64,000 nucleotides of DNA. It comes from Gekko japonicus. Lineage: Eukaryota. Both the position numbers and the translations under genes were made by a program. Below, piece after piece: positions 15,001 through 56,010 of this stretch; positions within the stretch are counted from its first letter, which is position 1; every line of letters starts with the position of its first letter. Location: contig NW_015176014.1 in assembly GCF_001447785.1 (NCBI RefSeq), positions 1-64,000 on the forward strand, written 5' to 3'. The notes under the pieces were generated by a model. The model did not search any database and was not told the origin of the DNA. It saw only the letters and a list, made by a program, of their open reading frames with translations.

Positions 15001-17065
15001 GCACGCCCTGCCTCTCCCGGCCCTGGGAGGAAGCTGAGAGTGGAGGAAGGGACGGAGCCAGACACTCTACTGGGAAGGGCTGCCCTTGCTGGGGAGGAGG
15101 GAATCTCCCCCCAATTTAATTAGCTGGCGGGGGCCTGGCCCCCTCAAAAAAAACCCCTAGCCACGGGGCTGGCTCTCACAGGCACCAGGTCAGATCCAAA
15201 CACATACATCATTCTGACAGCAAGACAAGGGCAGCCACTTGGAGAAGGAGAGCTTGGAAAGAGGAGGCGCAGCAGCACAAATGCACAGCCTTTTAATGTG
15301 TTGCTTCAGTTCATTCCTTTGAGCATCAAATACCTGAGAAGCCCAAGTCAGCCATAACGAGGTACTTGCGATCAGTGGCACTGCTAATCTGTGGGAAGTA
15401 GGCATCAACCATGAAGAAGAATACACAGGCCAGGAAGGCAAGCACACCAATTCCAATGCCATAACGACAGGCATCCTCGCTGTGGTTAAAGACGCAATAG
15501 AGCTGTGGCGAACTAGTATTGTTGGTGTAGCCTTCCCCAATGATGCAGGAGAAAACTATGAGTGCAAACACCTGCAAAGAAGAATACAAAGCTAGCACCT
15601 TCCACTGTGAAAGGAGGAAATTCAAGAGGGGCACAACCCAACCAGGATGGAGTATGAAGCCATTATCAATTCCCACCAAACGCCCAAGTTCCAAGCACCT
15701 AGGTAAATATTACTTTTGCAAGATTCTCATGTGTCTGCCCAAACTGGAGTTCTGCAGTAGTATGGAGACATAGGAAGCAAAAGCGACTGAAGGTGTCTCC
15801 CCAACAAAACTCAGAAGGCTACATAATACTTAAAGCACCATCTGAGGATTCCCTTAAACAAATTTCCCTTTGAGGGGGGGGGGGGAATCCCTCAAGATTT
15901 ATGTTAAGGCTTCCCGAACACAAAGCAGGCCCCAAATGAACCACTGTTGTCCTATCTATCAGTCAACAGCTAGGCATACTTCCTGTACTGAAAAAAAGGA
16001 TTGCTGAGGCAGATCAAATATAAGCACGACAAAAAGCAGAAGTGCCAGCACAGCAGATGCAAAAAGCACCTTGGAGAAACAGGAACTCCAGGGTTTGGAG
16101 CTTGACACAACTTAGCTGCTGCCCTATTCCTCATCGTCTACGGAAGCACTGATGGATCCCCCCAAGACTAATAACTGTAAGCGCCTAGCAGCAGGGCAGA
16201 CGCCCTCGTAATATGAAACCTAAACCAGACTCACATGCCAGTCACCAGCTAGTAAATAGGCGCTGAAAGGAGTCGCCCCCGCCTCCTTCACCCCTTGCCC
16301 ATCAGCTGACACCCACATGACCAGGTTGCGCCTCAGCCCTCACCTAAAGCTATGGCCTTTATTAGGTTTTTAATCCACCACCACCCCCCAACGCGACGAC
16401 ACTTTCACATTCAGGGCGCCATACGAACCAAGCCTAGCTCTGGAAAGGCGCGTAAGGGCACCTCCGTCTCCACATCTGAGCCCTCAGCGAGGCTAGCCGG
16501 TGGGGGCGCCAAGGGAGGCTCCGGCCAGCGCTAACTGAAGCGCTCGGCCGCAGGTACTTTTCAAACTACCTAAACTCCTCCTAGCAGCGGCTCGGGAGAG
16601 GCCTCGATCAAGTCCAGCGCCTCCCAGGGCTGAAAGTTTCCTCTAGCCCAGCGTCCAGCGTCCAGCAGATGGCCTCAAACAGCGGCGCATGACACTGAAG
16701 CGCTTCAGCTCGGATACGCCACCCCATGTAAGGGTGGCGGCACAGGTGCCGGATTCTATAACGAGCCCTCCCCTCCAACGTAATGGTCCCTCGTCGTCTG
16801 TTCCTGGCACACCTGAACCAGCCTAGCCAACTTTTTCCCCCTCTCTTCCGCGCCAAGCAAAAGGGAAGGCGCACCAACTCCACTCGGGAAAGGGGGAAGC
16901 AGAGTGAGACGGCCTCTGTCGCCCCAACCGACCGACCCACCTACCTAACCCTCCACTCACCGCGCTCAGAATGCGCACCACCACCTGTGGCTGCTGCAGA
17001 AAGCGCCACAAGTCAAAGGTGCCGCCAGCCTTACTGGCTCCGTAGGCACCCCCACCACTCTCCAT
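11893..17065 (-). CDS. SYNGR2: Synaptogyrin-2, spliced CDS (4 exons, 681 nt, 226 aa)
   Basis: Exons 17065-16961, 15571-15334, 13994-13855 and 12090-11893. MARVEL-domain protein MESGGGAYGASKAGG...EGYQPPPVY, tail-to-tail with TK1 as in mammals. Confidence 0.97.
13168..13495 (-). mobile_element. Sauria SINE
   Basis: tRNA-like head, GAGCTCCCGT/CCTAGCAG body motifs, (ACCTTT)n tail. Confidence 0.85.
13855..13994 (-). CDS. SYNGR2: SYNGR2 exon 3
   Basis: LWTFLWFIGFCVLTNQW...ARASIAFSFFSIFSW, 140 nt. Confidence 0.97.
14152..14285. repeat. 38-bp minisatellite, ~3.5 copies
   Basis: Unit TTCACTCTCACATGCTAAGCCCCAGGTGACGGGCATTC starting at 14152, 14190, 14228 and 14266. Confidence 0.95.
14753..15171. mobile_element. 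Non-autonomous DNA transposon (hAT-like)
   Basis: TIR CAGGCCCGTAGCTA / TAGCCACGGGGCTG, 8-bp TSD GCTC(C/T)CAC. Confidence 0.7.
15334..15571 (-). CDS. SYNGR2: SYNGR2 exon 2
   Basis: VFALIVFSCIIGEGY...DRKYLVMADLGFS, 238 nt. Confidence 0.97.
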
Positions 17066-17340
17066 GATTCTGATGCTTCTTTCCAACACCCGCCCGGCCC
17101 GGAACTCGCTGTAGCCGCCTCGCCCAAATTTGTGCCTGCGCGTCCGCAAGCTCCGCCTCCAGGGAGGAGACCTAACCCGAGAGCAAGCGACGGGTGGCTG
17201 CGACGTTGCGTGCTCTCCCGACCGAGTCGAGGTCCCTGGGCAGTGCAGGTGCTGAGTGGTTTGGTTTGCGCCCCGTCCTCCTTCCCATCAAGAACAGGCA
17301 AAACTGAGGCAGGCGTCCGGTCCGTTAACGGTTAGGCTTC
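16400..17340. promoter_or_regulatory. SYNGR2 CpG island / promoter
   Basis: High CpG density spanning exon 1 and its upstream region. Confidence 0.7.
16961..17065 (-). CDS. SYNGR2: SYNGR2 coding exon 1
   Basis: MESGGGAYGASKAGGTFDLWRFLQQPQVVVRILSA, donor GTGAGT. Confidence 0.95.
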
Positions 17341-17879: not shown

Positions 17880-18273
17880 CAGGGGTGTTGAACTCATTTG
17901 TTATGAGGGCCGGATCTGACATAAACGAGACCTTGTTGGGCCGGGCGATGTGTGTCATAAAATGTAATGCCAGGTAGCGCAGATATAAACTTTATAAATC
18001 ACACAAACACAAAGGTTAAAACGTTAGCTCTGGAAGCTGCAAACCTGCTTTTGATTTATTAACATTCACCACAGAAATCTCATGCTCAGAGTACTGAATC
18101 TAGGACCCAGGTTAGAACATGAAATGGCTGAGTGATTAAGAGAGTCTGGCGAAGCAAGCTATGATGCAGCAGCAGCAGAACTGGAAGCAGGAGATGGCCA
18201 GTTCCACTGTGAACCTGATAGAAGCCCTATGGGGGCCTGATCTGGCCCCTGGGCCGCATGTTTGACACCCCTG
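17880..18273. mobile_element. hAT-Charlie-like MITE
   Basis: TIR CAGGGGTGT / ACACCCCTG, perfect 8-bp TSD CTCTAGAT. Confidence 0.85.
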
Positions 18274-18525
18274 CTCTAGATCTCAATCATTCCTGTTTCA
18301 CAAACTTTAAGAGCTATTATTTTAGCTTCCTTTTGTTATTTTTACCATTACTTATTGTCTGGCTTTTTTAGAAGGCAGGACATTTTTTAGAAGTCGGACT
18401 CGACTGTGCGACTGAACAACAAAAAGGACACTTAAAATAGTAAAGAAACCTCTTCTTTACACGGATAATTACAAGGCACTCCAAAAACTTTAGGAATATG
18501 ATGTGTGTGAGAGTTCGTAAAGTTA

Positions 18526-18684
18526 GTAAAGGTAAAGGTTCCCTTGCTCGAAAGCCAGTCGAGTCCGACTCTAGAGTTGCAGTGCTCATCTCCGTTTCAA
18601 AGCCGAAGAGCCAGCGCTGTCCGAAGACGTTTCCGTGGTCATGTGGCCGGCATAACTAAACACCAAGGCACACAGAATGCTGTT
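18526..18684 (-). mobile_element. Sauria SINE, 3' half
   Basis: Near-identical to 13168-13310. Confidence 0.8.
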
Positions 18685-18888
18685 CTGTGAGTGGATCAAA
18701 CAAACCGATAGGCCAATTCTGGGCATGTTTATTCAGATGTAATTCCCAGTGAATTAAGTGCCACTGAATTTAGAGGAACTTATTTTAAGCAACCATATAT
18801 AGAGTCATGAGCCACAAATGTGTTCAGGAACATGATCCAGGAGCATTCATAGTGTCACAGCATAATAAGCTCTGTAAAGCAATGTAAA

Positions 18889-19225
18889 GCTCAAGTGATT
18901 AAGATGCTGAACTGCAGACCAGAAGGTCGGTAGTTCAGCAGTTTGAGACCCGAGTGCTGCATGACGGAGTGAGCTCCCGTCTCTGGCCCCAGTTCCTGCC
19001 AACCTAGCAGTTCGAAAGCAAGAAATTGCAAGTAGATAAATAGGTACCACTTCAGTGGGAAAGTAACAGTGTTACATGCGCCTCAGCGTCTAGTCGTGCC
19101 GGCCACATGACCACGGAAATCTCTTTGGACAGCACTGGCTCTTTAGCTTGGAAATGGAGATGAGTACCGCATCCCTAGAGTCAGATTCGACTGGCTTTCA
19201 AGCAAGGGAAACCTTTACCTTTACC
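18889..19225 (+). mobile_element. Sauria SINE
   Basis: Head plus body plus ACCTTTACCTTTACC tail. Confidence 0.85.
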
Positions 19226-22200
19226 AGGGCCAGCCTGAGGTTTTTTTGCACTCTAGGCGGGGCTACCTTCTGGCGCCCCCCCTGCACATGCCCAAGTATG
19301 CGGTTGCCAACCTCCAGGCAGGGCCTGGAGACAAAAAAGTCCCCCCCCCCTCCACCAAATGGCAAGCCAGGGACTCAAGGGGGAAGCTGTTCTGTTCCCT
19401 TCTCTCCCCCCCCCCAGCAAATTATAAACACCCCCCTCTCTCCGTGCCATGGAGTAACTTGAGGGTGAAGGAGTGGGACTGATATACACTGGTGATGAAG
19501 GAGGTGTACATATAACAGAATCTGTGGGTTTCCAAGGAAGGGGGATTAGGCATCGTGAAAGAGGCTGGGGCTCTTACAGTGCAATCCTATGAAGACTTAC
19601 TCCAGTCTAAACCAATTTATTTTAACAAATTTAGCAAACTGGAGTAACTCTGCACAGGATTGCACTGTCATGGTTTTGTCTCAAATTCCCACTGGGTTTC
19701 TCCCCCTCTCCCCTATCCTGTCACTCTGTGACAGCAGCCAAGAGAGAGGTTTCATAATTTTTGGGAGGTTTCACAATTTTTGTGGAATCCCACCTTCCCC
19801 TGGTGGAATTCCTTCATACTCCCACATGACTCCTTCTGAGCCCCTAGAGCTTTCAGGAAGTCCACCCCCCCCCCCCCCAAGCACCCATCTCCCTTTTCCC
19901 ATTCTTCTAGTGTGTTGGGAAGCACCCAGGGAGTTTGTCTTAACATTACAGGCAAAGATATACAATTCTAAAGAAATAAAGATAAACACAAAGAATATAG
20001 CTAACCTAACTCAGACTAAAATTACCTGGCTCTCCCACTTGGGTGAAAAAGAATGGGTGGAGAGAGAATGCTGTCTCTTCATACTGTAAGTCAGTCTCTC
20101 TCTCTCACACACACACACTTTTCAGACTGACGAGCTGCTTTTCAATTCTTTTATTCCTGGTTACCTCCATGGTCAGGTGACCACTCTTCTTAGAGATCCG
20201 AATTTCTGATGGCTACCCAAACTAGTTAGCTAACCACAGTGGCAGTGATCTGTAAAGAGAAACAGCTTGCTCTGTAAAGAGAAACAGCTTGGCAAGCCGG
20301 CCCTTGGACAAGCCAGGGAAGGCATGGGGAGGCATTTAAATGCCTCCTGCCCAAAAATAGCCCTGGGAATAAGTATCCATGGTCAATTTGACACTGTAAT
20401 GTAGATGGCATGATTTTTGTTCAGACTGAGGAAGCTTGACACTCAAGGTCTCCTCCAAAGAACTCAGGGAACTCCTGTTGCCAACCACTGTGAAAGGAAA
20501 AACCTGTCTAGAACATAGATGTAAAAACAGATGTATAAATAGAACCAATTCCATAATCTAATTCATCTGTTATCTCGCTCAGAGATCCTCAATGCTGTTG
20601 AGCTTGTGGACACTTCTGAAGTTTTAAAAACCGTGAATGGGCACCACAACAAAGTGGCTGCCATGCGGGTCGGGGCCAATCTTAAAATATTGTGAAGTTC
20701 CAAGCCCACCTATGATGAAGACAACTGTCTCCAAATGGGGGCTTCCTACAAACACAAAGATGTTGTCTCCTGGGCTTTTCTGAAACACTTACTGTTTCAG
20801 TGAGGTACAGGGTACAGAAGATCGGGAATGGCCCTTTGCTATAAGGAAGGAAGGAAGAAATGGGTCCCAGGAAACAGGGTGGCAGGTACCATGGCACCAC
20901 AGCTTTGTGTCGGAGATCACTGATCTAGATATTACACTATGCTCTAGCTACTGGCTTCTCATGTAGGAACTTTGTATTGCCCAGGACATAACTCTTTTTA
21001 AAACTGCACTGTTGGACTAGGGAAACAGCAGACAGGAAAGGAGCTGAACACCCCTTTCCCAACTGGCCCACCCCACCAGTAGATTCTAAACGAACTGGAA
21101 TTTTACAGAGAGTAGAATTTTTCCTTGTCACCATGATCCAGCCGTGAGGTCACTGCTTCCTAATAGTGATACTGTAAACATCCTAAGGATAGGGCTGCAT
21201 GCAGAGTGTGTGATTGGCAGCTTTCCAGTTCATTAAGTGGACCTAAGCAACACAATATCTACTGATCCCTGGGCATTATTTCCATGTCTAGTTATAGCTT
21301 TTATAGAGCTCCTTATACAGGGTACAACTCAGAGGCAGAAGTGAAGATTCCAAGGTGATTCAGCAAAGGGTCAGACTCTGCTAACAGAAAACTCTGCTAA
21401 CATCAGCAGAGCCTAGAAGGCCTTGTTGAGCTCCATAGGAACAAAACTTATCAAGGTAGGATTTCGGGTGGGGGTGGGGAAACAAGTGAGGAAGGAAAAC
21501 CACAAAGACAGACATCACTGGTCTGATTTACTATGCAAAATCAAAGACAGCAGCTGAAGTTTCATGATCACAGTGGCACTAAAGAGGCTGGCGAGCTTGG
21601 ACGTCTCCTGCCTACTCACTCTTTACAGACAGCCAGAGACATTAAGAGCCACAATGGGACAGCAGCTGGAACTGCCCTGTTTGCGTATCCATGTCTGTGG
21701 GGAGGGACAGAGATTATTTCCTAGTCAAAGGGCTCCTTCTGGTTCAGAAAATTCACAGACAATCATCCCATACATTGTCATCTGATAGGTTTGTACAGAA
21801 ATGGGATCTGGATGGCTAAACGTCCACCTCTACAGGACTTGCATTCAGTCACACTGCACATACTGAATTTTCTTTCTATTACACCAAGCACAGCACTGAG
21901 ATTAAACTGAATCACAAGGGCTGTCGTGACATAGGGCTGAGTTTTACAAGTTTGCATGGGTCCTGGAAGGAAACAAAACAGTTTGATGGCACTAAGGGAG
22001 GGAGGAGTATCACCCCAGAGAGGTGTGCAAGAACGGTTGTTGTGTCAGATTTCGGTGGGCATAGGGTTCTTATGAAATCCTAATTCTAAGCACACTGGTA
22101 GGATACTGGTGTTGAAAATGGAATGGGAAAAATAAGCTTGCACAGGCTTTTATTGTTTTCTTTTCTTTGTATTCAGTATTACTTCATCCTTCTCCCCAGA

Positions 22201-23323
22201 GCTACTCAAATATGTAACCCAATCAAACTCCTGTGCCTGATTTCCAAACACCTGATTGCTTAAGGACTAAGGTGAACTATTATCTCACAGTGCCTTATCT
22301 TCTTGAAGTTAGTCATTCCTAACAGTCTATTGTCTGTGGACCTGCAACATGCTGTAGGTTACAAGGAAAATTCAAACAAAGTGGGGAGCAGTCCAAGAAA
22401 AGTTACTTGCTGATCAATGGAACCAGGTGACAGCTTTCATGTTGCCTATGTAAAATGTAAATTGGCTTGTTACAGAGAAGGTGCTCAAGGTCAGGACCGC
22501 CCAGTCTATGACTTGGGCCCATTCCCCAAATGCAGGAATATATATACATGCATGCACTCACTCCTCTACACCCACCCACAATAAGCACAGAGCCCCAGGT
22601 CAGCCATATACATATTATATATGAATATATTTAGTACAACCCATTCCCTCTGATATTTGACACACAAAATACATTCAACGTGATTTCTTTTAAATGACCA
22701 AGACATTCATGATACAGATAGTGAACCAACTGCTTCCTTGAGGACTGATGGCACGCTCCACCTCAGTAGGTTTTAAATATAGAAAATACTTTTTTTTCTT
22801 ATGTCAGTATCATAAGCATGAATATCTTTATTAACATGCACATTGCTCCCAAAATAGCACCATTTTTAGTATACAGAAGCAGGCTTGCTACTTGTTCCAG
22901 CGTGACACTGGCCCAAGGGACGTTATTAGGTACATAATTCAGTACACAGGCAACGTGTACACACAGTAAGAAAAATAGACATTATACCTATAAAAAGATA
23001 CAGATCAAGGGTATGATAGATGCAGGAGCCAGTTTGCCCACATCACAATGAAGCCTTTCTCTGTATAAAAATTCAACCATGGAAAGGGGATTCTCTGGCT
23101 TCTTACTGCAAGTAAATTCTGGCCATTCTGTGCTCTTTGCCCTCTTCAGAAGCAAATCCAAAAAGCTGTGAAACCTAGCATCACAAAGATCCAAAAGCAA
23201 ATTCCATTAGGAAAGACATTATCAAAAATTGCCAAAATATATAAACTCTATTTCACAATTATAACGATGGTGGTGTCACAACATCAAAATAAGTGCATAC
23301 TATAACTATAAGCAAAGAATACA

Positions 23324-24380
23324 ATTAGTTGCTGTAGATTTTCCGGGTTGTGTGGCGGTGGTCTTAGTATTGTAGAACTTGACGTTTCACCAGTAGCTGT
23401 GACTGGCATCCTCAGAGGTATAACACAGAAGGATGGGGTACTATCTGCATCAAGGTGAGAAGAAAAATGGTAGGCAGGTAATTTATATCTACTCCAGAAG
23501 GTGGGGTAGGGCTGAGTCATTATCTTGTAGGAGTTCCCCAGGCTATGAACGTGCTAATGGAGGAGCTTTCCTGAGGAGATTCTTTTGTATATGGATTGTT
23601 TCTTCAGGAGGTTTCCTGTTTCCTGAGGAGGTTCTTTTGTATGTGGATTGGCTGTCGAAATTCTAATCTTATCTGTAGTACTATTGTCAGATGTAGAGCC
23701 TTTTGTGTTTTTCAGGACAGGAAACCATGCCCTATTTATTTTTAAGTATACTGCATACCATGCAGTTGTGGACAAGTTTACATTGGGACCACACAGCGTA
23801 GCATTCAGACAAAAATAAAAGAACATGAAAGACACTGCAGACTTGGCCAATCAGAAAAATCAGCAGTGGCTGAACATAGTGTGTCCTGTTTGAGTTAGGC
23901 TATTTTGTTCCAAGACACTGAAAGGCTGGACAAGCTACCATGTCAGATCACACAGGGAAGCCACTGAAATTCATAAACATAAACACAATTTCAACAGGAA
24001 AGAAGAGAGTTTAAAAATAAATAGGGCATGGTTTCCTATCCTGAAAAACACAAAAGGCTCTACGTCTGACAATAGCACTACAGATAAGATTACAATTTCG
24101 ACAGCCAATCCACATACAAAAGAACCTCCTCAGGAAACAGGAAACCTCCTGAAGAAACAATCCATATACAAAAGAATCTCCTCAGGAAAGCTCCTCCATT
24201 AGCACGTTCATAGCCTGGGGAACTCCTACAAGATAATTCCCACACTTTCTGGAGTAGATCTAAATTACCTGCCAGTCATAGTTACTGGCGAAACGTCAGG
24301 TTCTACAATGCCAAGACCACGGCCACACAACCTGGAAAATCTACAGCATCTAATGAACTTGTGAAAGCTTTCGACAACAC
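23324..24380 (+). mobile_element. 5'-truncated Penelope-like element with inverted upstream pseudo-LTR
   Basis: From 23746 reads VYCIPCSCGQVYIGTTQRSIQTKIKEHERHCRLGQSEKSAVAEH (GIY-YIG endonuclease), then HREATEIHKHKHNFNRKEESLKINRAWFPILK. The 3' end is duplicated in inverted orientation at 23324-23745. Confidence 0.9.
23377..23419 (-). ncRNA. Minimal type I hammerhead ribozyme motif (Penelope-associated)
   Basis: Minus strand reads ACCT-CTGAGGA-T-GCCAGT cacagct ACTGGT-GAAAC-GTC-AAGT: intact core boxes, 6-bp stem II, GUC cleavage triplet, stem I with one mismatch. Confidence 0.65.
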
Positions 24381-24381
24381 G

Positions 24382-24702
24382 TAGAATACAATGTCTCCTC
24401 CTTCAAAGATAAATATTACTCCATGTAGTCCATTCAACTTAGTAGGAGGAATCCTTGTTTTCAAAACGATTGACTCTTCACACTATGAACTTTGTTGTCA
24501 GGAGAAACTGTTGAAATCGGGTTCCAACTACGCTGCCAGCAAACTGAAGAAGTTGATGGAAACGTCTTCTTTAAGTATCTGGAACAGGCGTTTTTGTGAA
24601 GGCTATTTTTGAAAATGTTTTGAAAACGTGGATTCCTCCTGTTAAGTTGAACAGACTACATGGACTAATATTTATCTTCGAAGGAGGAAACATTGTATTC
24701 TA
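24382..24702. repeat. Nested ~85-bp-arm inverted repeat (MITE-like)
   Basis: TAGAATACAATG...GGAATCC (24382-24454) pairs imperfectly with GGATTCC...CATTGTATTCTA (24630-24702). Confidence 0.8.
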
Positions 24703-25333
24703 TGCCTTGTTTATAATTATAGTATGCACTTATTTTGATGTTGTGACACCACCATCGTTATAATTGTGAAATAGAGTTTATATATTTTGGCAATTTTTGA
24801 TAATGTCTTTCCTAATGGAATTTGCTTTTGGATCTTTGTGATGCTAGGTTTCACAGCTTTTTGGATTTGCTTCTGAAGAGGGCAAAGAGCACAGAATGGC
24901 CAGAATTTACTTGCAGTAAGAAGCCAGAGAATCCCCTTTCCATGGTTGAATTTTTATACAGAGAAAGGCTTCATTGTGATGTGGGCAAACTGGCTCCTGC
25001 ATCTATCATACCCTTGATCTGTATCTTTTTATAGGTATAATGTCTATTTTTCTTACTGTGTGTACACGTTGCCTGTGTACTGAATTATGTACCTAATAAC
25101 GTCCCTTGGGCCAGTGTCACGCTGGAACAAGTAGCAAGCCTGCTTCTGTATACTAAAAATGGTGCTATTTTGGGAGCAATGTGCATGTTAATAAAGATAT
25201 TCATGCTTATGATACTGACATGGAATTTGCTTTTGGATCTCTTCGAAGCAAGGCAAATTTTCCAGTTGTTGTCATATCACTATAGGCCTTTCACAAGAAG
25301 TTCCTTTCCTCTTGAGGACTTTCCCCACCAAAC

Positions 25334-25396
25334 TCATGGAAGATTCACCAGTTGCAAAGTCAGTTTCTTTATCAGGCACCATTTTTCCTGGACGCA
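25334..25396 (-). CDS. TMC8: TMC8 last coding exon
   Basis: CVQEKWCLIKKLTLQLVNLP*, compare mammalian QVQEKWHL. Confidence 0.88.
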   Translation of the reverse strand, partial: CVQEKWCLIKKLTLQLVNLP

Positions 25397-28392
25397 CTAG
25401 ATGGATGCAAAGGAGAGATGGATTGTGTTACACAGACTGAGCACAGAACATCAACCAGTGTGACAACGAGTCACAGGTTATTTGAGATACAATGATGTAT
25501 ATTATTATAGATCAGCTCTGTAATACCTAAGGACCACTCACCTGTACTCGTTGCTTCTTGAGCCTTTCAATCTCTTTTCTGTTTGCTTGTGCCTGAGAAA
25601 TGTAGACAGTGAGGATGAGGCTGTGGAAGAAGAAGAAGAGATTGGATTTATACCCCACCTTTCACTACCTGAAGTAGTCTCAGAGCGGCTTACAATCTCC
25701 TTTCCCTTCCCCTCCCCACAACAGACACCCTGTGAGGTAGGTGGAGCTGAGACAGCTCTTCTGAGAACTGCTCTTGAGAGAACAGCTCTGAGAGAACTTG
25801 TGACTGACCCAAGGTCACACCAGCAGCTTCATGTGGAGGAGTGGGGAATCAAGCCCGGTTCTCCCAGATTAGTGTCCATGCTCCTAACCACTGCACCAAA
25901 AGGAAGAAACCATCATACTAATGACAACAGTTCTTGGAGTTTTTGGCTCCCACTCAACCATCTCAGCAGAGAAGGAAACAGTGGTTCCACTTTAGATCTT
26001 AAGAATGTGGTTGCAAGAGCTTGCTTCTAGATATATTCACAATTAAATTGTAAAAAAATAAAAGTCTGCTTCACAGCATTTGTAGTTATGGATTCTCTTT
26101 GTCCTGCTGATACTATCAAGGCATCAAATTGGTAATAAGATGAACTGGTGGATGCTTATGGTGGTGGATGTTGTGGAGGTTTGTTATGTATGAACTGGTA
26201 GATTTTGTGGAGGTTTGTTACACCCATAATATACTTTTAAAAAAGAGTCAGGGGTCAGGATTGCTACAGCAACGGTACTCCTAAACCATTCACTACAATG
26301 TCAGCAGAATTACCACCAATAATAATGGGCTCTTGGCAAGGCTCTGACATTTTCTAGAACATCTGTAAACTGGATTTTCAAACATGGCTCTTGATAGGCA
26401 CAGTTATAGTTAGTAGTCTTTCTGTAATTTTAAAAAAAGATGATTTCTTTCCTTTTGGTTGCCTGGATTCCACTGGGGCTATAATCCAACACAGTATGTA
26501 CACTTAAACCGAGGGAAGTCAATTATTTTGCTTTGCCTGTTCTAGAAAGAGTTTGAAGCTAGGACATAGTTCTTGGAGAGGGGAGCATTTCTTGTTCCAA
26601 TGGTCACTATAATTCAAAGTGGATGGTCTGAATTAAGTCCCAAGTGAGCAAGAGGACAAAACATGGCAACCAAGTTTAATCACTTCAGTGTGTCATTTTT
26701 CTTCGGTGACAGGCCAATGAGCGACAAGTAAGCCTACTTTGGTTAATAAGCTTTTAGCAGGCCACATATTGGGTTGGTCAATGTGCAAAACTAGCAAGTT
26801 GCTCAGAGATATAAGTGGTCCAGAAGCATGATCTCATGTAGCCTGAAACACAAGATCCAACACTTATCCCTTATTCCAAATGTCACCTCTGCAGGGAGGA
26901 TCCAGGTGCGACCAACCCCCTCCACCACCACCTCCAGGTATTCTAACTATGCCTCGAATGGGACTCACCTGAGCAGCATCAAGAGTAAGAAACAAAAGAC
27001 ATTGGATGTGGCATAATCCAAAACAAGCATTGCTGAGGTAGATAGGTGGGACATAGCTTTAGGCACTGCCTGCCAAGGAGTTGAATAGTTCGCAAACAGC
27101 CCGCATGGCTGGGATGGGCGGATACTGGAACAGAAAACAGCGACTGTCAATGAAAGGTTTTACAAGCTTTATCCCTAAGAGTGAAACCCCAAGCACTCTA
27201 AATCCATTGACATCAATGGGTTTAGAAGTAATTCTCTTTAGGATTACGCTGTAAATTGTTTACTTCTAAATCTTCCCTCAACTTACCTGCTGATGACATA
27301 ACCCAGAGACATGCAGGCCAAAAACAGGCCTAGCAGTAGCATAATCTGGAAGAGGAATTTAGAATGGGATGCTCGAAACAGCTGAGTTGAAGGCTGGCAG
27401 TTCTGGAACAAAGTGTACTGGGGTGGGAGAAAGAGAGCAGTTTTACACACGGTTTTGGAGCACAGGTAATCTCTCCTCACTAGGAGAGATGAAAGTCGTG
27501 AGGTTTAACAGGATGAGGACCCTGTGTGCCAGCCTAGCAACCAGGAAGCTAGGAAAGAAGAAGAAGGAAAGATAGAGAAAGGCTGTGGTGAGGAGTAGTG
27601 GTTTCTTCACCCTACTTCCCCATCATCCTGGGATCCAGCCAGCAGCCTCAGTTTCCATGAGAGACATTTCTGCTTAACCACAGACAGATTCAGGGCCACA
27701 ACTCCTGTTTATATAATGCCAAAGTTCTCCATCACCAGCAAGTGTTGAGATACTACCCCATAACGCCCTGAGGGTGGTTTATTGGATGTGGAGGTCTACT
27801 AATCCCTCCTACGGATGTGTCCACACTGCTGGAACTGGGGGCGGAGGGGGGGGGGAGTTGCTTTCTCAGACGCATGCAAGCTAGCAACAATGGAGTCATA
27901 CACAGCTGAAAACTAGACGAGGCTGCCGCAAAGTGAGGACCATTTTTGGATGTTGTCTGCTGAGCTGGGAGAGACAACACTCCTTTCCATATTTCTCGTC
28001 TCCATCTATGGAGTGCTACTACTGGGGAAGGTGGCCACACTGATATAAGAGATGATAAGTCCATAGTTCCTTTGCTAGGATCAGGCCACCTCACTCGCAA
28101 GCCAAAAGGGCTGGGGACTCCATTTAGGGTTGTGCTCAAAACCCACTGGTATCCTCTTGTAGTGTGTGCTCTTTAAACATTTTAAACAAACAGAGAGAGT
28201 CTTTACCTTTTTTATATAAAATGTAAGGAAAATGACAACACATCCAAGCAAAGGCAGGAGAGGACAAAAGAAGATCCCAGTCCATATGACTGTTTGAGCT
28301 GCTACAATATCCAACACATTGTGAGGAACCAGGAATTCTTCTTTGCCAAGCCAGTGAGCCAGTGCACAGGATGAATGCTTAGCTAACAGCCT

Positions 28393-28424
<32 letters not shown>

Positions 28425-31400
28425 GGGGGGGTGTCATAGCAGGACAGCATGCAGCTGCCTACCTAAGCTATTATTTTGGAAGAGACCCACAGTAATGTAT
28501 TCTGGCAATACATCTTGCTTTAAAAGTGCTCTGCAGTCAGCAACAAGGAAATGACAGCTGACCCAAGACTATCCTTCCATACCACCCAGCATTACCAGAA
28601 GCTAAGCTAGTGACATAGAAGATCTATCATGTAATACTTCCAAAGGATAGGAGTGCCCTACCCACTGATGACAAGGAAGACTACTTGCCTGGCCTTTGAT
28701 AGGCTGGCAGTCAAGGAAACCCTAGGATAGATGAACACCGGTGGTGATCTTTTGTCTTACCTCCGCGGCAGACTGATAAGGAAGGCGAACGCCAAGGTGG
28801 TCAAGAAGCTGAAGACAGTCATCTTATACATTTCCTGTCCAATGTGAGTTTCCCAGCACTGTAGGCACAGTAGAACAAAGTGACTCACACAAGAAATGCT
28901 ATTTCTAGGCATGTTATGCTATGTCAATATAATATGCATAGACTGGCACATAGAGTTATTGGGTTTTTAAAAACTAAAACTCACAGTGTACTTGTGCAAT
29001 ATCATTTTATAAGTGCTGATGGTACAAGGACAGCATATGTTTGCCTCTTACTCCAATTCTATGGAGAAAATTAATGCTTGGTTTTAATTTTATTCAAGGT
29101 GGGCATTTGTAATGAATTAAGACAAAAAAATCAGACAGTTTTAATGGCTCATGATTAACCAGGATTTCCTTATTGCAAGAGGACAGTCACTCAGAACTGT
29201 AGTCAAACAAGAAGTCCTAGGTAATTTGGAACCAATACAACAAGTGAAAAAAGACACAAATGTCCAAGAAAATGGAATGCCAAAAGATATCAGACGGGTG
29301 AAAGAGCTGCTGTTAAAAATCTCAAGTCATATTTGCTGGCTGGATATGCAAAGGACTAGTGTCATCAAGGAAAACTAACTCACTGTCATATAGATACCTC
29401 ATTTCAAGAACATTTCATATCAGAACACATTATTACTTGGCACAATTTGCTCCGAACAGAAAACATGCATCCTGATTATCCTGTGCAACTCCAGTCACCT
29501 GATAGAGTTTGTTGTAACCACATAGCTGGCACTGGGGAGAGTTTCTGCTCCCTGTGCACAGGACCCTGTGGCCCAGGAAGAACAGGAATATTCCCAGGGT
29601 GGACAGCTTCAAGGTCATACACCTGTAAGACAGAAGACACTACACTTTACACACAGGGTCTACAATTCTGTCCAACCACTTAAACCATATATGCTAGGTT
29701 CTGAGCACCTGACTGTGAGTGGATATCAATGACCATTTTGCCACATATTTACCACCCATGATCTGCAACTAATATCTGCAGCTGAATCTCTTTACCACCT
29801 GGCAAGGTGATACACACAACCAGCTTACCAAGTGGTTACCACGATCACAATGAATTGTTACACAGTATTAGAGTGCTTAATCACATGTTACAAAGTCCCT
29901 GTGTCCCCTGTATATCTGCTATGGTCCTGTTGACAGGAGTTCTGTGCTCAGCATTTAATTCCCATGCAGGTATTGGCCCATGGCACAGAGGATGCTACCC
30001 CCTGTGCCTTTTTCTCCAACTGGAAATGCCACAGGGAGTGGTTATGTCTGCATAGGCCTTCTGAATGTCTCCATCCACTCTGTCTCTAGTCCACATAACA
30101 TATCAGGGTTAGGCAGACTAATCTGAGGGCTGTAATTTGTAGAAGTCATAGATTAGGTGCTAGGTCTCTCTGTCAGGAAATTCCTGAAGACCTTAAATAC
30201 AAGCATCTGATTCCTGGCGTTGTTTTTATTTTGATCTGTATAAATCAGATGTTAATCCATCTCAGGTGAACATAAGGTTGTGAAGACTACATACTCCCTA
30301 AGAGCTGTGAGGCAAAAGCGAACAGCGAACCGATCAGACCGACGAAGAAAGAGGTCTTTCCAACGCGGCGGTAAGAAAGGAACTGGCGGGATGCCCGCGC
30401 CCACCCCTCTGGGCATGCGCAGTGGGGTTCCTGCGCATGCCCGAGGGACTGGGCGCAAAAATCCGTTAAAAGAGCTTGCTACAGCACCGATCGATCCAGC
30501 GCGTGCGCACTGAATCCCATGGGTGTGAAGCACAGAGACCACGTCGAAGATCATAAGGTTGTGAAGACTACAATCTTGAAATTAATTGAAACTTTGGTAT
30601 ACTATAAGATGATGGGGATGCATAAAGGAACAGATGGATAAAGGAGACATCTCCTATTTCTCAAAGAAGTTTTTAAAGGAAATTAGCTCTGTCATTTTTT
30701 TAAAAATGGGAACTTTATGCTAGGCTAGAAATAAAGTATAAATTACAACTTCCATTAGAAGAGGAAGATTCAGCCTTCCAAATCAGGGTTCTTTTCTGGG
30801 GGAATGCGCCAGAATGGAGTTCCAGAACCTCTTTGACAAAATTCTTTTTAAAATGTTTAAAAAGTTCATTAGTTTTCAGTATACAGATTGGAAACCTCAT
30901 TTCCTTCTTGAGAGTTCTGGCACCTCTTTTTTTAAAAAACACACAAAAAAACATCCTGTTCCAAATTAACTAATATACCACAATCCTTATGAAGAAGCAT
31001 GATTTGGATGGGTTTTCTAAAGTCCCAGATTGAGTAAACTTGAAATCAACACACTACAGAGATGGACAGCCATGAGTTCTCAGCATTTGAATCATCAAGG
31101 TATGCACCATTAATCCCATAATAATCACATGCAAGAAAGTTTGGCAAACAACTGCCCTCTTCCATTTTTATTTGTATACTCATGCTAATCTCCAATTGTG
31201 CAAAAATCCAAAGATTTTAATTGGTCACAGGCCCATCTTGTGAAATACATTAGTAGATAGTGGTAATCAGATGCTATTTCAGCTGGATGATTCATTTTAT
31301 TGCTTTACTGAGCTACAAAACACTTTTCAAATTGCCTAATTCTGACTCTGTGTGCAACTTTTTTCTCTGCAGCCACACATGTAACTGTCAGGTGAGGACC

Positions 31401-34400: not shown

Positions 34401-37400
34401 ATACATTGAAGCAGCCTTTAGGGGTGCTGGTTGGAAATAAGGAGACCTTGCCCAATATAGAAATAATAGAAAAGCATTATCTCATGAGATAGAATGAGGA
34501 GGGTGGGGCTTTGGCGCAACGAGAACGGTTGCATCGGGGAGAGCTTCCATGTGACGGCCGGATCAGCGGCTCTTTTAGAGGGGTTCAGGGGATCCCAAAC
34601 TCCAGTGAGCTTCCCGAAGAGAAGCTCATTGCAAAGGGCTTGACTTGGATTCCTCGTGCACAGCAGCAAGCGGGTGGAAGTCTGAGAGTGCCCCAACGCA
34701 GGAGCCGACCAAGCGTGCCCATGTCAGATATGGGCACTGAGTTGTGACTACCACAGAGAGGAAGAAACTGGAACCTCATCCATAACATCGATGAAGAACA
34801 ACACCATGAGTATGCTTAAAAGCAACAACAGAAAATCTACTTAACGATAAAGCCCCTTTAAAGTTTAAAAAGAGAAAGGAACTGAGGGGTGAAGAACTCT
34901 TTCTGGTCCCCCCCCCCCTTCCTCTGGCAGCAGCCACAAAAAGAACTTCAAGTGATTTTTAAATGGCTTCCTGGGCAAAAAAGTAAAGAGAAGGCTTTTG
35001 TCTGAGACTGTAATAATTTTCCCTGTGGAATAAAAAATTGGAGAAGAATTGGCTTCAGCTGTTTTTGGACTTTAGTGATCTAGAAATATATAGTCCCTTT
35101 TTCTCTTCCTTTTGTATGGAGCTATTAGCAAAGAATCTGGAATAATAGCAAGACTTTATAAAGTTTTACCTCCATTTTAGTAAGGAATATAAGCAATTAT
35201 ACTTTAATAATTGGAGTATTTTTAAAGGAAGAAAGAAGAACTGAACTCTTTATGTATTATATTCTCACAACATCTTATGTTTATGTTTGTTCAACTGTAA
35301 AGTACATTTTGTTTCTATTGTCTTCTTCTGTAATGTAGCCAATTGATAAGGTTCTTTAACTCTGTCTTTAAAACAGCTATGTTTTCTAAATTCATCAGGG
35401 AGGCTTACACCTTCAGGGTGTTCCCGCCGCCGAGGATCACAGGCACTGAGTGTGTTGGCCTGGTATGGGAAGCCGAGGAGAGTGTGGCAATTTGACTGAC
35501 TGCCCAACGCACCAGCCAATAGCCTACCGTCCCTGGTTGAGGCCGTATCAGGCTGGGCTTTGGAACATCCTAGACTGATAGTCCTGGGTGATTTCAGTGT
35601 CCATGCTGATGACACGGCCTCTACTCAGGCAGCGGGTTCCTGCCCAGTCTGGGGCATCCCACCTTCCCCACTCTGTCCACCAGCCCTTTGGTTTCACTGC
35701 AGGACCTCGCGGTTCTCCTTCAGGCAGCATGGTGCCACCGGATGACCCCAGAAGGGTCTCTGTGTCTGGCTCCTCGCTTCCAGTGCTCATCACGTCAGTG
35801 GTGCACCAGGTCGAGGGAAGAGAGGAGTTCTGACACTATGTCAGCTCTTGGACGCAGTTACTCTCACCACACGCTTGTGTCAGCAAGATTTGTTTATTGA
35901 AACATGAAACAGGTTCCATGTGTGGACAGATTCTGTGTCAGAACTGACACCCAGGTGCCAGGACTGAACCTATACAATCTGCAGGAGATCCCCCTTAAGC
36001 ACACTACCCAATCAATATTTGCCTGCAGCCCACCAAAGATCTAAACTGCCCCAATATACTGCCCCCCACACCTGTTACCAGCCGTTGCACTATCTATGAG
36101 TTCCCTGCACCCAAGGTCGAAGTGGGCGCTGAGATAATGTGTTTCCAAGGCACTGTGCAAGCCGACACTCACACACTCCCATAACCCCCCCTTTTAGTCA
36201 GAAGGATAAACAGCTGAGAGAAAGAGGAAAGAGAAGCAATTAACCCTTGAGCCAGCTTGGTGTAGTGGTTAAGTGCGCAGACTCTAATCTGGGAGAACTG
36301 GGTTTGATTCCCCACTCCTCCACTTGCACCTGGCTGGATGACCTTGGGCAAGCCGTAGTTCTGATAAGAGCTGTTCTTGAAAAAGAGCAGTTTCTGTCAG
36401 AGCTCTCTCAGCCCCGCCTACCTCACAGGGTGTCTGTTGTGGGGAGGGGAAGGGAAAGGAGTTTGTAAGCCGCTCTGAGACACCTTTGGGTAGTGAAGGG
36501 CGGGGTATAAATCCAATCTCTTCTCTTCTTCTTCTTCTACAGAGTCCATGACAAGCGAGGCACGAGCTTGACAGAGGCTCCAGCCATCATGCAACTCAAG
36601 CCTCCAGTTGAGCCCTAGCAACTGATCTGGGTTGGAGAACATGAAGTCCAGATCCAGATTCAGCTGCTAATAGTCTTGCTATGGAGCTGACACGGATTAG
36701 GAAGGAAGAGCCAGCCTACCTGGGAAACCTCTGTGGCCAAGTGAATGCAATAAAAAGCAGCAGCCATCAGAAGCAAGATGACACCATTAATTAGCAAGCG
36801 CAACAGATAGAGCTGACTCAGCTGCTTCCTTGTCCGCTGTCGCTTCTGCATACGTCGGGTCTGCTCTGCCAGGTCAATCTGTCCCACGCAGAAGAGAAAT
36901 AAAATCAATTCTATCAGTGCACGGAATAACTTAATTCTAAGGCCTAAAACATTCAAAGGGAAGAGCATGCAAGGCCTCTCCAGCAGACACATTCTTGGCC
37001 CAGCAAAGCAGGCAGAGGATGTACAATAATCTAAGGCTGGAAACAATGATTGCCAACAGTTACCAACACCTCTAGCCTTGGGAGATGACCCTAGAGGCAG
37101 GAATTCAGGGGTTTAAATCCTGTTTATTTGGGCTGCTCCTACAAATCTCACTCTATTTTCTATTTTCACTCTATTTTCTTTCACACAGGTCAGGAACTAT
37201 TAATGGCAACTGCCTGCTTGATAAATATGCTAACAAGGAGGTGACACAAGAGCTCAGTGAAGACCGGAACCCTGGCAACTAGAACAGGAGACCCAGAGCT
37301 TAACGCCTCAGCCATTCTTCTAGCTCTATTTCAAACGACTGTGGTTTCCTTTTGTAGGCACTGAGTCAAAAGGAGTTCAAGGGCATCCTATGGGCAAGAC

Positions 37401-40400: not shown

Positions 40401-43400
40401 CGGGTTTTCTTTTTCATTCTGCATTCATTTTCCTCCCTCCAGCACTCAGTTCACTTTACATTCACTGTTTCCCTGGGTTGTCTGAGACTGCTTTTGTGCT
40501 GATTTTCCCCTTGTTTTATTTCCAAGCTGAAGGTAATTCAAAAGTGTATAGATTCCCTTGGATTTCCCCCACCCTTTTCCTGTCACTCCAAGGCCAGTCC
40601 ACTGCCCACATTGAGGTAATTCCTTCCACTCTGCACGCCAGAGCGACGTGTAGCGTCGTGTCCTGGCGACGGCGGGTGCAACGCATCTCGCCATCCCCAT
40701 GGCACAGATTCTGCAAAGACACACGATCCCTCGCAGTGACTTGGCAACCCTAACATCTTTGCAGGATCATTCCTGTGGGGACAACAGACGCGCCGCACCA
40801 TGCTGTCGCCAGGAAGTGACGCTGGGTGACGCTCTGGCAATGAGGCTCGAAACTCGATGGTACCATCAAGTTTTCAGCCCCATTGCCAGAACGTCGCCCA
40901 GCGTCACTTCCTGGTGACAGCATGTTGTGTTACAAGGAGGAATGGTCCAGCCAGGGAGCATGTTTCCCCCGCCGGATCGTGGTAAATACTTGGGAACTCT
41001 AGCTACAACCAAAACCCACAGCTTTCCTTAATTGGGGTGGGAATATCACTTGTGACAAGTGGGAGGGTGGCATCCAAAGGTTTTTTTAATTTATGCAGCT
41101 GCCCTATTGCAGCTGTGCAGTAGTGTCAAGTGCCACCTTCCGTTTAAATCCCCATGGTTCAGTTCCTTGAATGAAAGAGAATACAAAGGAAACTGACAGA
41201 GTTTTAAAAAAAATCCTCCTGAAAGTGACCAACTATTTTTGAAACTGACTAGAACAGCTGCAAAGCTCCCTTGTCTTATTGCCAAGCTCTAGTGGATTCT
41301 CTGTTGATGTGATGAATGGAAAAGAGTCATCAGCCTCCTCCATTCCCCACATGACCCAATGCTGGTCTTTCCTCCCCTCCCGCTACAGAGCTTACGAAGA
41401 GGCTTCTCAGAGAGCTGTCAGAGAACCACATTCTTTCCCTGTAATTTTCCCCCAGTGATTCGAGACTAGTGAAAGTCTCATTTCATGTTGTGGGTCAGCC
41501 AGAGCTCAGCAATAGTGAGGACTTCTCAGGAGAAGAGGACTCCTCAGGAGAAGAGAAGCCCTGTGTAGTCAGCCTTGAGTTAACAGAAGCTGACCGACAG
41601 GAAAATGAGCTGCAGGCCTGTCAGGATGCATAGCCAAAAGCTGGTGCAGAGCCACCAACACCCTCCAGCCCTGATTCAACAGATGAACCTCAATTGACCA
41701 TTTCTAACCCACCAGTATCACCCACACCCTAAGAGCACCACAGATGGAGGCTGAGAACAGAGCTACAGACAAGATGGCAAAGTGTTTCCAGGCTGCAATC
41801 CTGTGCACACTTACTTGGGCGTAAGTCCCCCTGATGCCAGTGGGACTTCTTTTTTAAACCCCCGAAGGGATATTTTTTATTTTGCAATAGACTACAGAAC
41901 TACAAATAAAATATTGGGAAGGGAACTACAACTAGGGATAAAGGAAAGATAACCACACTATGCTAAAACCCCAAGAGGAGGAGATCTTATCTCTGTTAAT
42001 ATAAGTGTTAGTACTAAAAGTGTTAATATCACAATACACTTGTAGAGTTCTTGTTTATCACAGCTTCAAATGTGTTAATATGTTGTTATGAGAGAGCTTT
42101 CTGATCATCTTCTTGTTCTTAGCTTCAAACAGTGGGACTTACTTCTGAGTAAACATGCTTCGAGCTGTTTCTATGTTGCCATAACAGGAATGGGAAAAGA
42201 ACTTTTTATTTCCTTCTACCAGTCATTCTTATTTTCCAATACGGAATTAAATTGACATGAGAGACAGATACTGAGGTGGGAAACCTAAGTCCCCCCCCCC
42301 AATTTATTGGCACAATACTAAAAAAGCTATCCAGAGCTTCTGCTAGAGGACCCCATACAAATTGCAGCCCTGTGCAAAAGCATGGAAGAGTTGCAGCCAA
42401 CTTTGTACCGGTACACACACACACGTTGCCAACCAATGATCACAGCTTGCAATGCCAGTGTCAGTGGGTTCTACTGTGCATTCTGTACACTCAACATGTT
42501 CCCCCATATTATGAGATTATGGGACTCTCCCATTTTTCACAGTGGCTGATAGCACAGCAAAGAATCCCCCAGTCCATTGTGGAAATAAATACAACGGCCT
42601 CTAGAAAGAGGCTCTGGGCGGGTGCCCCGGCCTTGGACACTCAGTGTCAATTTGCTGTGCTGACATCAGCAGGGTATAATGACACTGAGTCCACCATTTT
42701 CTCCAGAGGAACTGATCTCTGCTACCTAAAGAACAGTTGTAATTTTGAGTGATCTCCAGCCCTCACCTGGAGATTGGCAACAATGGTTCCCCAGGAGGGA
42801 ATGGTTGGATTGGAGGGCGGAGTCTGTGGCTTTGTACCTGTCCGAGGTCCCACGCCTCCTGAAACCTCACCCTCTCCAGGCTCCATCCCTCACATCTCCA
42901 GGAATTTCCCACCAGGAGTTGGCAACCCTATCTCCTTCCCAGCCAATCATCAACCTACCTTTATTTCCCCCTCACTCTTCAGCTTTCTACCCCCACACAC
43001 CTGCAGCCTCTCCCGTGCTCTGAAGTCCTGACTGCTACGTCACATTGGCTGTAATACCGGGGCCACCTCAGCAGCATATAAGGATACAGAGCCCACCATT
43101 TTCTCCAGGGGAACTGATCTCTGCCACCTGGAAAGCAGTTGTAATTCTGAGTGATCTCCAGCCCTCACCTGGAGATTGGACACATTTTACCTCAGAACAG
43201 CAAACTGTTTAGAAGAAGAAGAAGAGATTGGATTTATACCCCGCCTTTCACTACTCAAAGGTGTCTCAGAGCGGCTTACAAACTCCTTTCCCTTCCCCTC
43301 CCCACAACAGACACCCTGTGAGGTAGGTGGGGCTGAGAGAGCTCTTGACAGAAACTGCTCTTTTTCAAGGACAGCTCTTATCAGAACTACGACTTGCCCA

Positions 43401-55001: not shown

Positions 55002-56010
55002 TAGAATCATAGAGTTGGAAGGGATCTCCAGTGTGATCTAGTCAAACCCCCTGCACAATGCAGGAAATTCACAAATACCTCCCCACACACCCTCAGTGAC
55101 TGCTAATCCACGCCCAGAAGATGACAAAAAACCTCCACGATCTCCAGCCAAACTGGGCTGGAGAAAAATTGCTTCCTGACCCCAACATGGCGATCAGCAT
55201 TTCCCTGGGTGTGTAAGAAAGGGCTACAAGAACTAAGCACTGAGGCAACCCATCCTATCCTCCCTCTCATGTTCTGCCTAAGTTCACAGAATCAACAGTG
55301 CTGTCAGATGGCCATCTAGCCTCTGTTTGAAAACTTCCAAAGAAGGAGAGCCCACCACCTCCTGAGGAAGCCTGTTCCACTGAGGAACCTGTTCTGTCAG
55401 GAAGTTCTTCCTAACTTCCAGTTTGGTGTAGTGCCAGTTTGGTGTAGTGGTTAAGTGCATGGACTCTAATCTGGGAGAACCGGGTTTGATTCCCCACTCC
55501 TCCACTTGTACCTGCTGGATGACCTTGGGCAAGCCATAGTTCTGGCACAGCTGTTCTTGAAAAAAAGGGCAGTTTCTGTCAGAGCTCTCTCAGCCCCACC
55601 TACCTCACAGGGTGTCTATTGTGGGGAGGGGGAGGGAAAGGAGTTTGTAAGCCACTCTGAGACTCCTTTGGGTAGTGAAGGGCGGGGTATAAATCCAATC
55701 TCCTCCTCCTCCTGCTTAGCTGAAAACGAAAACTCTTCTGATTTAATTTCAACCCATTGGTTCTGGTCCAGCCTCCTGGGGCAACAGAAAATAACTCCGT
55801 ACCATCCTCTATATGACAGCCCTTCAAATACTTGAAGATTGTTATATCACCTCTCAGTCATCTCCTCTCCAGGCTAAATATACCCAGCTCCTTCAACCTT
55901 TCCTCATAGGACTTGGTTTCCAGACCCCTCACCATCCTTGTTGCCTTCCTCTGGACACGTTCCAGCTTGTCTATATCCTTCTTAAATTGTGGTGCCCAAA
56001 ACTGAACACA
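55002..56010 (-). mobile_element. CR1 LINE 3' portion, interrupted by a SINE
   Basis: QWNRLPQEVVGSPSLEVFKQRLD and KGCHIEDGTELFS motifs; (TGATTCTA)-type tail. Confidence 0.85.
55434..55712 (+). mobile_element. Squam3-like SINE (young subfamily) inside CR1
   Basis: Same diagnostic sequence as the 36250 and 43211 copies; 16-nt head duplicated. Confidence 0.88.

Follow-up and report, generated by a model that had tools for sequence, protein, structure and literature searches.

In the Poseidon element of Anolis carolinensis (PAc), the open reading frame (ORF) starts at stem II of a hammerhead motif, and the cut site lies 26 nt downstream. Cleavage of this hammerhead required the protein of the element, and Anolis RNA-seq yielded no RNA ends at the cut site (PMC11167929). 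Elements of this kind are described with 5′ truncation, an inverted pLTR and a one-sided tail of 30–40 bp (PMC8557442). The minimal hammerheads (min-HHRs) of metazoan Penelope elements are described in PMC4209133 as type I motifs in which helix I has 4 bp, helix II is preceded by an extra base, a palindrome lies at 15.2–16.2 and a helix III loop is absent. They occur as dispersed single copies and, from truncated elements, as opposite-strand pairs; cleavage was not detectable for single motifs, and intact dimers cleaved poorly in vitro. The 3′ UTR hammerheads of mammalian Clec2 genes are bipartite motifs that cut in the stretch from the stop codon to the polyadenylation signal; their cleavage and their lowering of expression have been demonstrated (PMC6765202). 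The literature retrieved in our search contained no report on a TMC8 hammerhead or on gecko Penelope hammerheads; PMC4209133 mentions reptile motifs.

We analysed 64,000 nt of Gekko japonicus DNA (contig NW_015176014.1, positions 1 to 64,000; the window), which carries a hammerhead motif 1.96 kb past the stop codon of TMC8 and in sense with that gene (Table 1). Read in order on the minus strand from 23419 to 23377, the motif consists of ACCT, CTGAGGA (23415–23409), an extra T (23408), stem II, GAAAC-GTC and AAGT. All parts named in the original prediction (CTGAGGA, a 6-bp stem II, GAAAC-GTC and a cut after C23381 on the minus strand) can be read in the sequence; the extra T was absent from that description. 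The motif has the CUGANGA and GAAA boxes, an NUH site, the extra base before helix II and the 15.2–16.2 palindrome. It further resembles the metazoan min-HHRs of PMC4209133 in being of type I, in the 4-bp helix I of its family, in the missing helix III loop, and in its occurrence both as scattered single copies and, where the element is truncated, as pairs on opposite strands. Helix II has 6 bp in the gecko, compared with 7–8 bp in the Schistosoma families of the same text. Unlike the metazoan motifs described there, the TMC8-side copy has lost the G10.1–C11.1 pair, now G-U, and one pair of the 4–5-bp helix I, now a C-A mismatch.

A search of 18000–30000 against Rfam gave 9 matches at E ≤ 10, with a hammerhead among none of them. 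This is no evidence against a hammerhead, because the motif is without helix III. A 35-place core pattern gave 590 + 582 = 1,172 exact matches genome-wide compared with 0 for the reversed control, so the motif is not a product of chance. The profile search suggested with the original prediction thus returned no hammerhead from Rfam, while the pattern search recovered the core abundantly. Judged by its letters, the family is a member of the min-HHRs and the TMC8-side copy is a decayed one. The family belongs to a known kind of transposon ribozyme, and the supplementary alignments of PMC4209133 and PMC11167929 may already include it.

Table 1. Features of the hammerhead locus and its surroundings (positions in the window)
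Feature	Position	Strand	Basis or remark
TMC8 terminal coding exon; stop codon begins at 25336	25334..25396	-	protein mapping
AATAAA downstream of hammerhead	22827..22832	-	sequence
Inverted pLTR of Poseidon-like element	23324..23745	-	sense to TMC8, without tail; 16/422 letters off majority of 29 copies
ATG of element ORF start (MPVTATGETS...)	23407..23409	-	overlaps A9 and stem II start; cut site 26 nt away
Broken C-terminal ORF remnant, GIY-YIG-type endonuclease end, VYCIPCSCGQVYIG	23746..24076	+	alignment to Anolis protein P0001
Direct 3′ pLTR with private 68-bp deletion (CUGANGA box gone), then tail	24011..24379	+	tail about 24355–24379
Target-site duplication, left, 10 bp, AGAATACAAT	23316..23325	+	sequence
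Target-site duplication, right, 10 bp	24383..24392	+	sequence
Minimal type I hammerhead motif of pLTR	23377..23419	-	C3–A9 at 23415–23409, bulged U 23408
Stem II, 6 bp	23407–23402 with 23394–23389	-	read from sequence
GAAACGUC of hammerhead (GAAAC-GTC)	23388–23381	-	predicted cut 3′ of C23381
Family departures of TMC8-side hammerhead	23389 (G10.1-U11.1); 23379 (C-A, stem I)	-	compared with sister copies
Family B, left part, older repeat receiving the element insertion	23154..23325		holds the 12 T>C of X15 at 23207–23307
Family B, right part, itself a fold-back (24374–24467 with 24617–24710)	24374..24870		upstream arm pairing with 23154–23325
Inverted copy of 22801–23325	24697..25221	+	505 letters unbrokenly identical

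The locus is a 5′-truncated insertion made up of a GIY-YIG remnant, a direct and an inverted pLTR, a one-sided tail and a 10-bp target duplication. Its arms span 23745–23324 and 24011–24357, and the tail, about 25 bp with an internal loss, is found at the right end only. The combination of 5′ truncation, inverted pLTR and one-sided tail is that of an EN+ Penelope-like element. The ORF remnant is 68% identical to residues 701–762 and 55% identical to residues 758–813 of the 836-aa Anolis reverse transcriptase (RT) protein P0001, whose RT domain (PF00078) is taken from precomputed annotation. Together with sister loci the remnant aligns in order to residues 424–813, and the YRIPC..VYIG motif is present. 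In sister copy L028, the end of the ORF shares 69% identity with P0001 (E 1.4e-80), and RT motifs are found in sister locus L029, not in the truncated TMC8-side copy. With the RT part supplied by L029, the element has one ORF, in which RT precedes a GIY-YIG endonuclease at the C-terminus. The pLTR overlaps the ORF start, with the ATG at 23409, and bears the hammerhead; the frame from this ATG matches residues 1–39 of P0001 at 46–49% in L009 and L014. The GIY-YIG label derives from the motif and from PMC11167929, not from Pfam, which on four element remnants gave nothing below E 0.04 and no significant GIY-YIG match.

The gecko element shares with PAc the geometry of ORF start and stem II, the 26-nt cut spacing, the GIY-YIG-type end and the one-sided tail. 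The 69% protein identity of the sister copy is a further likeness, if P0001 is the PAc protein, as species, length and domains suggest. The TMC8-side copy differs from PAc in being 5′-truncated and broken, in its inverted pLTR and in its damaged stem I; the two were compared by protein and geometry. The placement as Poseidon-like is one by best matches and hammerhead/ORF geometry. The earlier claim of a minimal hammerhead from a Penelope-like element is borne out by protein homology and insertion anatomy, which together mark the motif as the ribozyme carried by a Poseidon-like Penelope retroelement that landed downstream of the TMC8 stop codon.

Searching the genome at the DNA level yielded 2,208 candidates, of which 40 were scored; the top other copies were 93–94% identical over 191 nt. 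The comparison set consisted of 29 other loci, the best of these 40, picked for likeness to the TMC8-side copy and therefore a biased sample. Compared with the majority of the 29, the TMC8-side copy differs at 16 of 422 pLTR letters, at 2 of 43 motif letters and at none of the 15 core letters. At the pLTR rate 1.6 motif changes are expected, and the probability that neutral decay leaves a 15-letter core untouched is 0.56, so that the survival of every core letter gives no hint of selection. Both motif changes affect pairing. Position 23379 is G in 28 of the 29 copies, and its change breaks a stem I pair; position 23389 is C in 18, and its change turns G10.1–C11.1 into G-U. The G10.1–C11.1 pair is retained in 16 of the 29 copies, AGGT in 27 and every feature in 12. 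Pooled over the 29 copies, divergence is similar in core (9/435) and flank (220/9,300); outside CpG it is 4/348 and 198/9,184 respectively, a small gap made up of few events. Across 30 copies 98.1% of helix I/II cells pair, but 359 of 500 shuffles equal that value, the copies being too alike, and pair counts gave no covariation beyond shuffles. These comparisons within the genome indicate that the TMC8-side hammerhead changes at the neutral rate of its pLTR.

The plus-strand copy (24270–24301) retains stem II, GAAACGTC (24290–24297) and AGGT (24298–24301). It is missing 68 bp between GGCA microhomologies (23405–23408 and 23473–23476 in the left arm); the proposed loss of its CTGANGA box by this deletion is seen in the sequence. 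The joint (24270–24273) is private to this locus among element copies, and a genome pattern search for it gave two matches, this locus and one in unrelated sequence. The idea that the opposite copy was selectively disabled found no support, as the motif of the inverted pLTR itself decays at the neutral rate.

Intact cores occur at about 0.47 per Mb of genome, so some copies must land in sense within 3′ UTRs. The minus strand of 20000–54000 contains the single core match of the TMC8-side motif and no second one, leaving it without a same-strand dimer partner. In some sister insertions two hammerheads stand about 100 nt apart on one strand (L003:1633–1760 and G000:C1140:431366–431499). To judge by their arrangement, these pairs could dimerise in cis and would be better candidates for active copies than the TMC8-side motif. 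Sister copy L005 carries a second short hammerhead piece on the opposite strand.

The gecko TMC8 protein maps to 15 stretches of the minus strand, from 53271 to 25337, and its orthologues end at the same residue. The exon at 28392–28207 is 94–97% identical to gecko TMC8 proteins and 81–90% identical to those of other lizards, and a transcript contig set shows three splice joints among the last exons. Further AATAAA signals lie at 23740, inside the pLTR and upstream of the motif, and at 22154. The cut site thus falls between the stop codon and two AATAAA, with RNA on both sides and no record spanning the site. The proposed location in the TMC8 3′ UTR or in read-through RNA is supported by the stop codon at 25336 and by the RNA data.

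Several other features of the region were recorded. Downstream of TMC8, the minus strand has MARVEL-domain exons at 15190–17287, which from synteny we take to be SYNGR2; a weak test, with one rodent fusion protein as query, found no C17orf99-like exon between the two genes. A short repeat of about 280 bp, presumably a Sauria SINE, has four copies (25626–25900, 36254–36532, 43211–43491 and 55433–55717), one of them in a TMC8 intron adjoining exon 25620–25542, and is abundant in RNA reads. Another TMC8 intron feature is a minus-strand LINE reverse transcriptase fragment (Pfam RVT_1) at 49966–51532, presumably of RTE/Bov-B type.

The RNA evidence comprises five runs, and one run of another organism (X19), of 24 listed. 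In the raw runs X20–X22 unique TMC8 sequence is covered to a depth of about 1, too low to map ends. The depth of family pLTR sequence is tens to hundreds at 23301–23624, compared with about 1–2 in the unique 3′ UTR. One contig of X15, a run of unrecorded kind with an RNA-like coverage pattern, covers 22443–23338 at depth 12 and reaches 15 letters into the pLTR. Runs X21 and X22 have reads within 22653–23138, and in X19 the unique flank 22167–23138 is uncovered at 90% likeness. Among the runs examined, no read or contig extends from the TMC8 stop codon across the insertion to the hammerhead, and no read-end pile-up is listed at the cut site, where depth is low and not locus-specific. Most TMC8 mRNA might end before the motif, for instance at the AATAAA at 23740, which would make the motif rarely transcribed and irrelevant; that no record joins the last exon to 23338 would fit such early termination. 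It is opposed by the X15 contig, with its depth and its A-to-G signature on the minus strand, and by the X21 and X22 reads, and we consider it very improbable. If true, it would lead to the same outcome, no function.

The X15 contig differs from the genome at 25 positions, 24 of which are displayed; 12 of them are T>C within 23207–23307 and correspond to A>G in the TMC8 orientation. Minus-strand A is read as G at 12 of 35 positions in 23188–23325 and at 1 of 204 in 22443–23187 (Fisher p 1.8e-10), and a 5′ G is missing at 11 of the 12 sites. Six of the twelve changes are shared by X22, in part of the reads, and two (23219 and 23220) are also found in X19 contigs and may be family variants. Heavy ADAR editing of lizard Penelope RNA (PMC5625713) and ADAR hyper-editing of inverted repeats in Xenopus (PMC10636886) have been published, and the gecko changes resemble these cases in being A-to-G clustered in one arm with a rare 5′ G. 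They differ from published hyper-editing in that the cluster seen occupies the family B arm next to the element, in a single contig, reads of the hammerhead arm being inseparable from other copies. The cluster, seen mainly in this one contig and read against the assembly rather than DNA of the same animal, fits ADAR editing of the hairpin without proving it; a single unbranched contig may also reflect few molecules or a genomic variant. An edited hairpin needs both arms, and would therefore imply transcription across the hammerhead. A T>C at 23379 in RNA reads (26/26 in X21, 133/143 in X22) was also considered as evidence of editing and was set aside, being the family state and present in X19 too.

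Family B (loci L032–L038) is a second high-copy fold-back repeat with a Penelope-like layout, a target duplication of 12–13 bp (23143–23155 and 25240–25251) and a 31-nt one-sided extension. It has CTGAAGA and GAAACGTC boxes (24544–24566, plus strand), with stem II absent between them, in four of seven sister loci; tblastn of 51 Penelope-type proteins against the seven family B loci gave no match. The outer arms of the locus, 22801–23325 and 24697–25221, include about 350 bp unique in the genome, and the inner arms differ by 2–13%. About 405 bp (24815–25219) appear to be inserted into the old end of family B. The X15 contig has no T>C at 102 sites in 22801–23187 and the match of an X2 contig ends at 25220 with 3 letters left over, so the sampled animals may lack this segment. 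To judge from the arms, the inverted copy would have arisen either by duplication in the very recent past or through a fault in the assembly; the segment end, 27 nt past the AATAAA at 22832, would also be compatible with copying from TMC8 mRNA.

Folding was computed at equilibrium, a treatment that takes no account of kinetics, of proteins or of editing that unwinds the RNA. In folds that lacked the antisense arm, stem II formed with a probability of 0.63–0.99 and stem I was incomplete in all five segments folded. When the antisense arm was included (24357–23324 and 24870–23150), hammerhead stems I and II each had a probability of 0.000 in both folds. In the predicted TMC8-sense hairpin, 24271–24297 is the partner of stem II, GAAA, GUC and the cut site, the last three lying opposite 24290–24298. 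Of the motif, a 68-nt bulge takes in the 5′ stem I strand and CUGAGGA and nothing more, and five of the seven letters of this box (G5–A9) pair locally with 23459–23463 inside it. The original picture of a core in an unpaired bulge therefore holds for the position of the 5′ stem I strand and CUGAGGA, and fails for stem II, GAAA, GUC and the cut site, which are predicted to be paired, as are most letters of the box. Its own caveats (a C-A mismatch in stem I, sequestration by the antisense arm, possible inactivity) are the better reading. The hammerhead-compatible fold was computed at -2.3 kcal/mol for the TMC8-side copy and -10.5 kcal/mol for L005; the half-dimer, at -10.1 compared with -20.9 kcal/mol, is 10.8 kcal/mol less stable.

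One rival reading is that the hammerhead was co-opted to repress TMC8 in the manner of Clec2, the 68-bp deletion being kept for freeing the core; a deletion joint found in no other element copy would fit this. So would the cut site, which comes after the stop codon and ahead of two AATAAA, the geometry given for Clec2 in PMC6765202. In the predicted fold, however, the deletion frees the 5′ third of the motif only, and no active fold forms in the mRNA context that includes the antisense arm. No monomer fold is available, because helix III is absent, and the X15 contig shows RNA downstream of the cut site. The motif decays at the neutral rate and has lost two structural pairs. In contrast to the Clec2 ribozymes, the gecko motif is a high-copy transposon motif without helix III and without a sign of selection. 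We consider co-option extremely improbable. The self-cleaving regulator of TMC8 first envisaged is unsupported, in view of this decay, the lost stem I and G10.1–C11.1 pairs, the missing cis dimer partner and the predicted sequestration.

ADAR favours A-C mismatches. In the predicted hairpin A23379 (minus strand), the mismatch base of stem I, is unpaired opposite a C of the antisense arm, and editing there would restore the family letter. A conditional or weak cleavage of TMC8 mRNA in trans could make use of this restored stem I: the opened hairpin would pair through its ACGU palindrome with other Poseidon pLTR transcripts, maybe helped by protein, and the poly(A) tail would be cut off. The core is intact, family pLTR sequence is plentiful in the RNA runs, and the Anolis relative is protein-assisted (PMC11167929). 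Against such cleavage stand the weaker half-dimer, the dominance of the sequestering fold in the predictions and the poor performance of even intact dimers in vitro (PMC4209133). No RNA ends were found at the cut site in the Anolis RNA-seq of PMC11167929, and no read-end pile-up is listed, at the low depth noted above, in the gecko runs. We regard trans cleavage as improbable. A ribozyme gated by editing is a fainter prospect: ADAR would edit the A-C at 23379, restoring stem I and loosening the hairpin, and a trans dimer with Poseidon transcripts, or folding by Poseidon protein, would then cut the TMC8 3′ UTR. If true, this would tie TMC8 levels to transposon activity and editing.

It is highly probable that the TMC8-side hammerhead is a passenger, which was inserted with a Poseidon-like element, decays neutrally, has no dimer partner, is predicted to be buried in double-stranded RNA and is likely catalytically silent. 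The silence is expected because a dimer partner is absent and the motif is predicted to pair with the antisense arm. The 15 unchanged core letters, and the readiness of stem II to form when the antisense arm is left out, are a counterpoint to this reading. The insertion anatomy shows a 5′-truncated element with inverted pLTR, tail and target duplication inside the older fold-back repeat, and the inverted pLTR places one hammerhead in sense with TMC8. The hammerhead has since changed at the pLTR rate, stem I and G10.1–C11.1 included, and the direct copy has lost its 68 bp; both changes are visible against the sister copies. TMC8 transcripts probably traverse the whole insertion at least in part, as the RNA data suggest, and the upstream antisense arm is predicted to zip onto stem II, GAAA and the cut site. 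The resulting nested hairpin may serve as an ADAR substrate.

If there is an effect on TMC8, a double-stranded, edited 3′ UTR is a likelier source of it than self-cleavage. Were TMC8 mRNA cleaved, the locus would be the equivalent in a reptile of the Clec2 ribozymes, one whose transposon origin is known, and would connect Penelope activity with a host gene. The motif is likely an ordinary transposon relic and not a gene switch. As such it could be of modest use for studying how motifs of this kind are tolerated in host mRNAs, through the dimer requirement, the antisense arm and editing.
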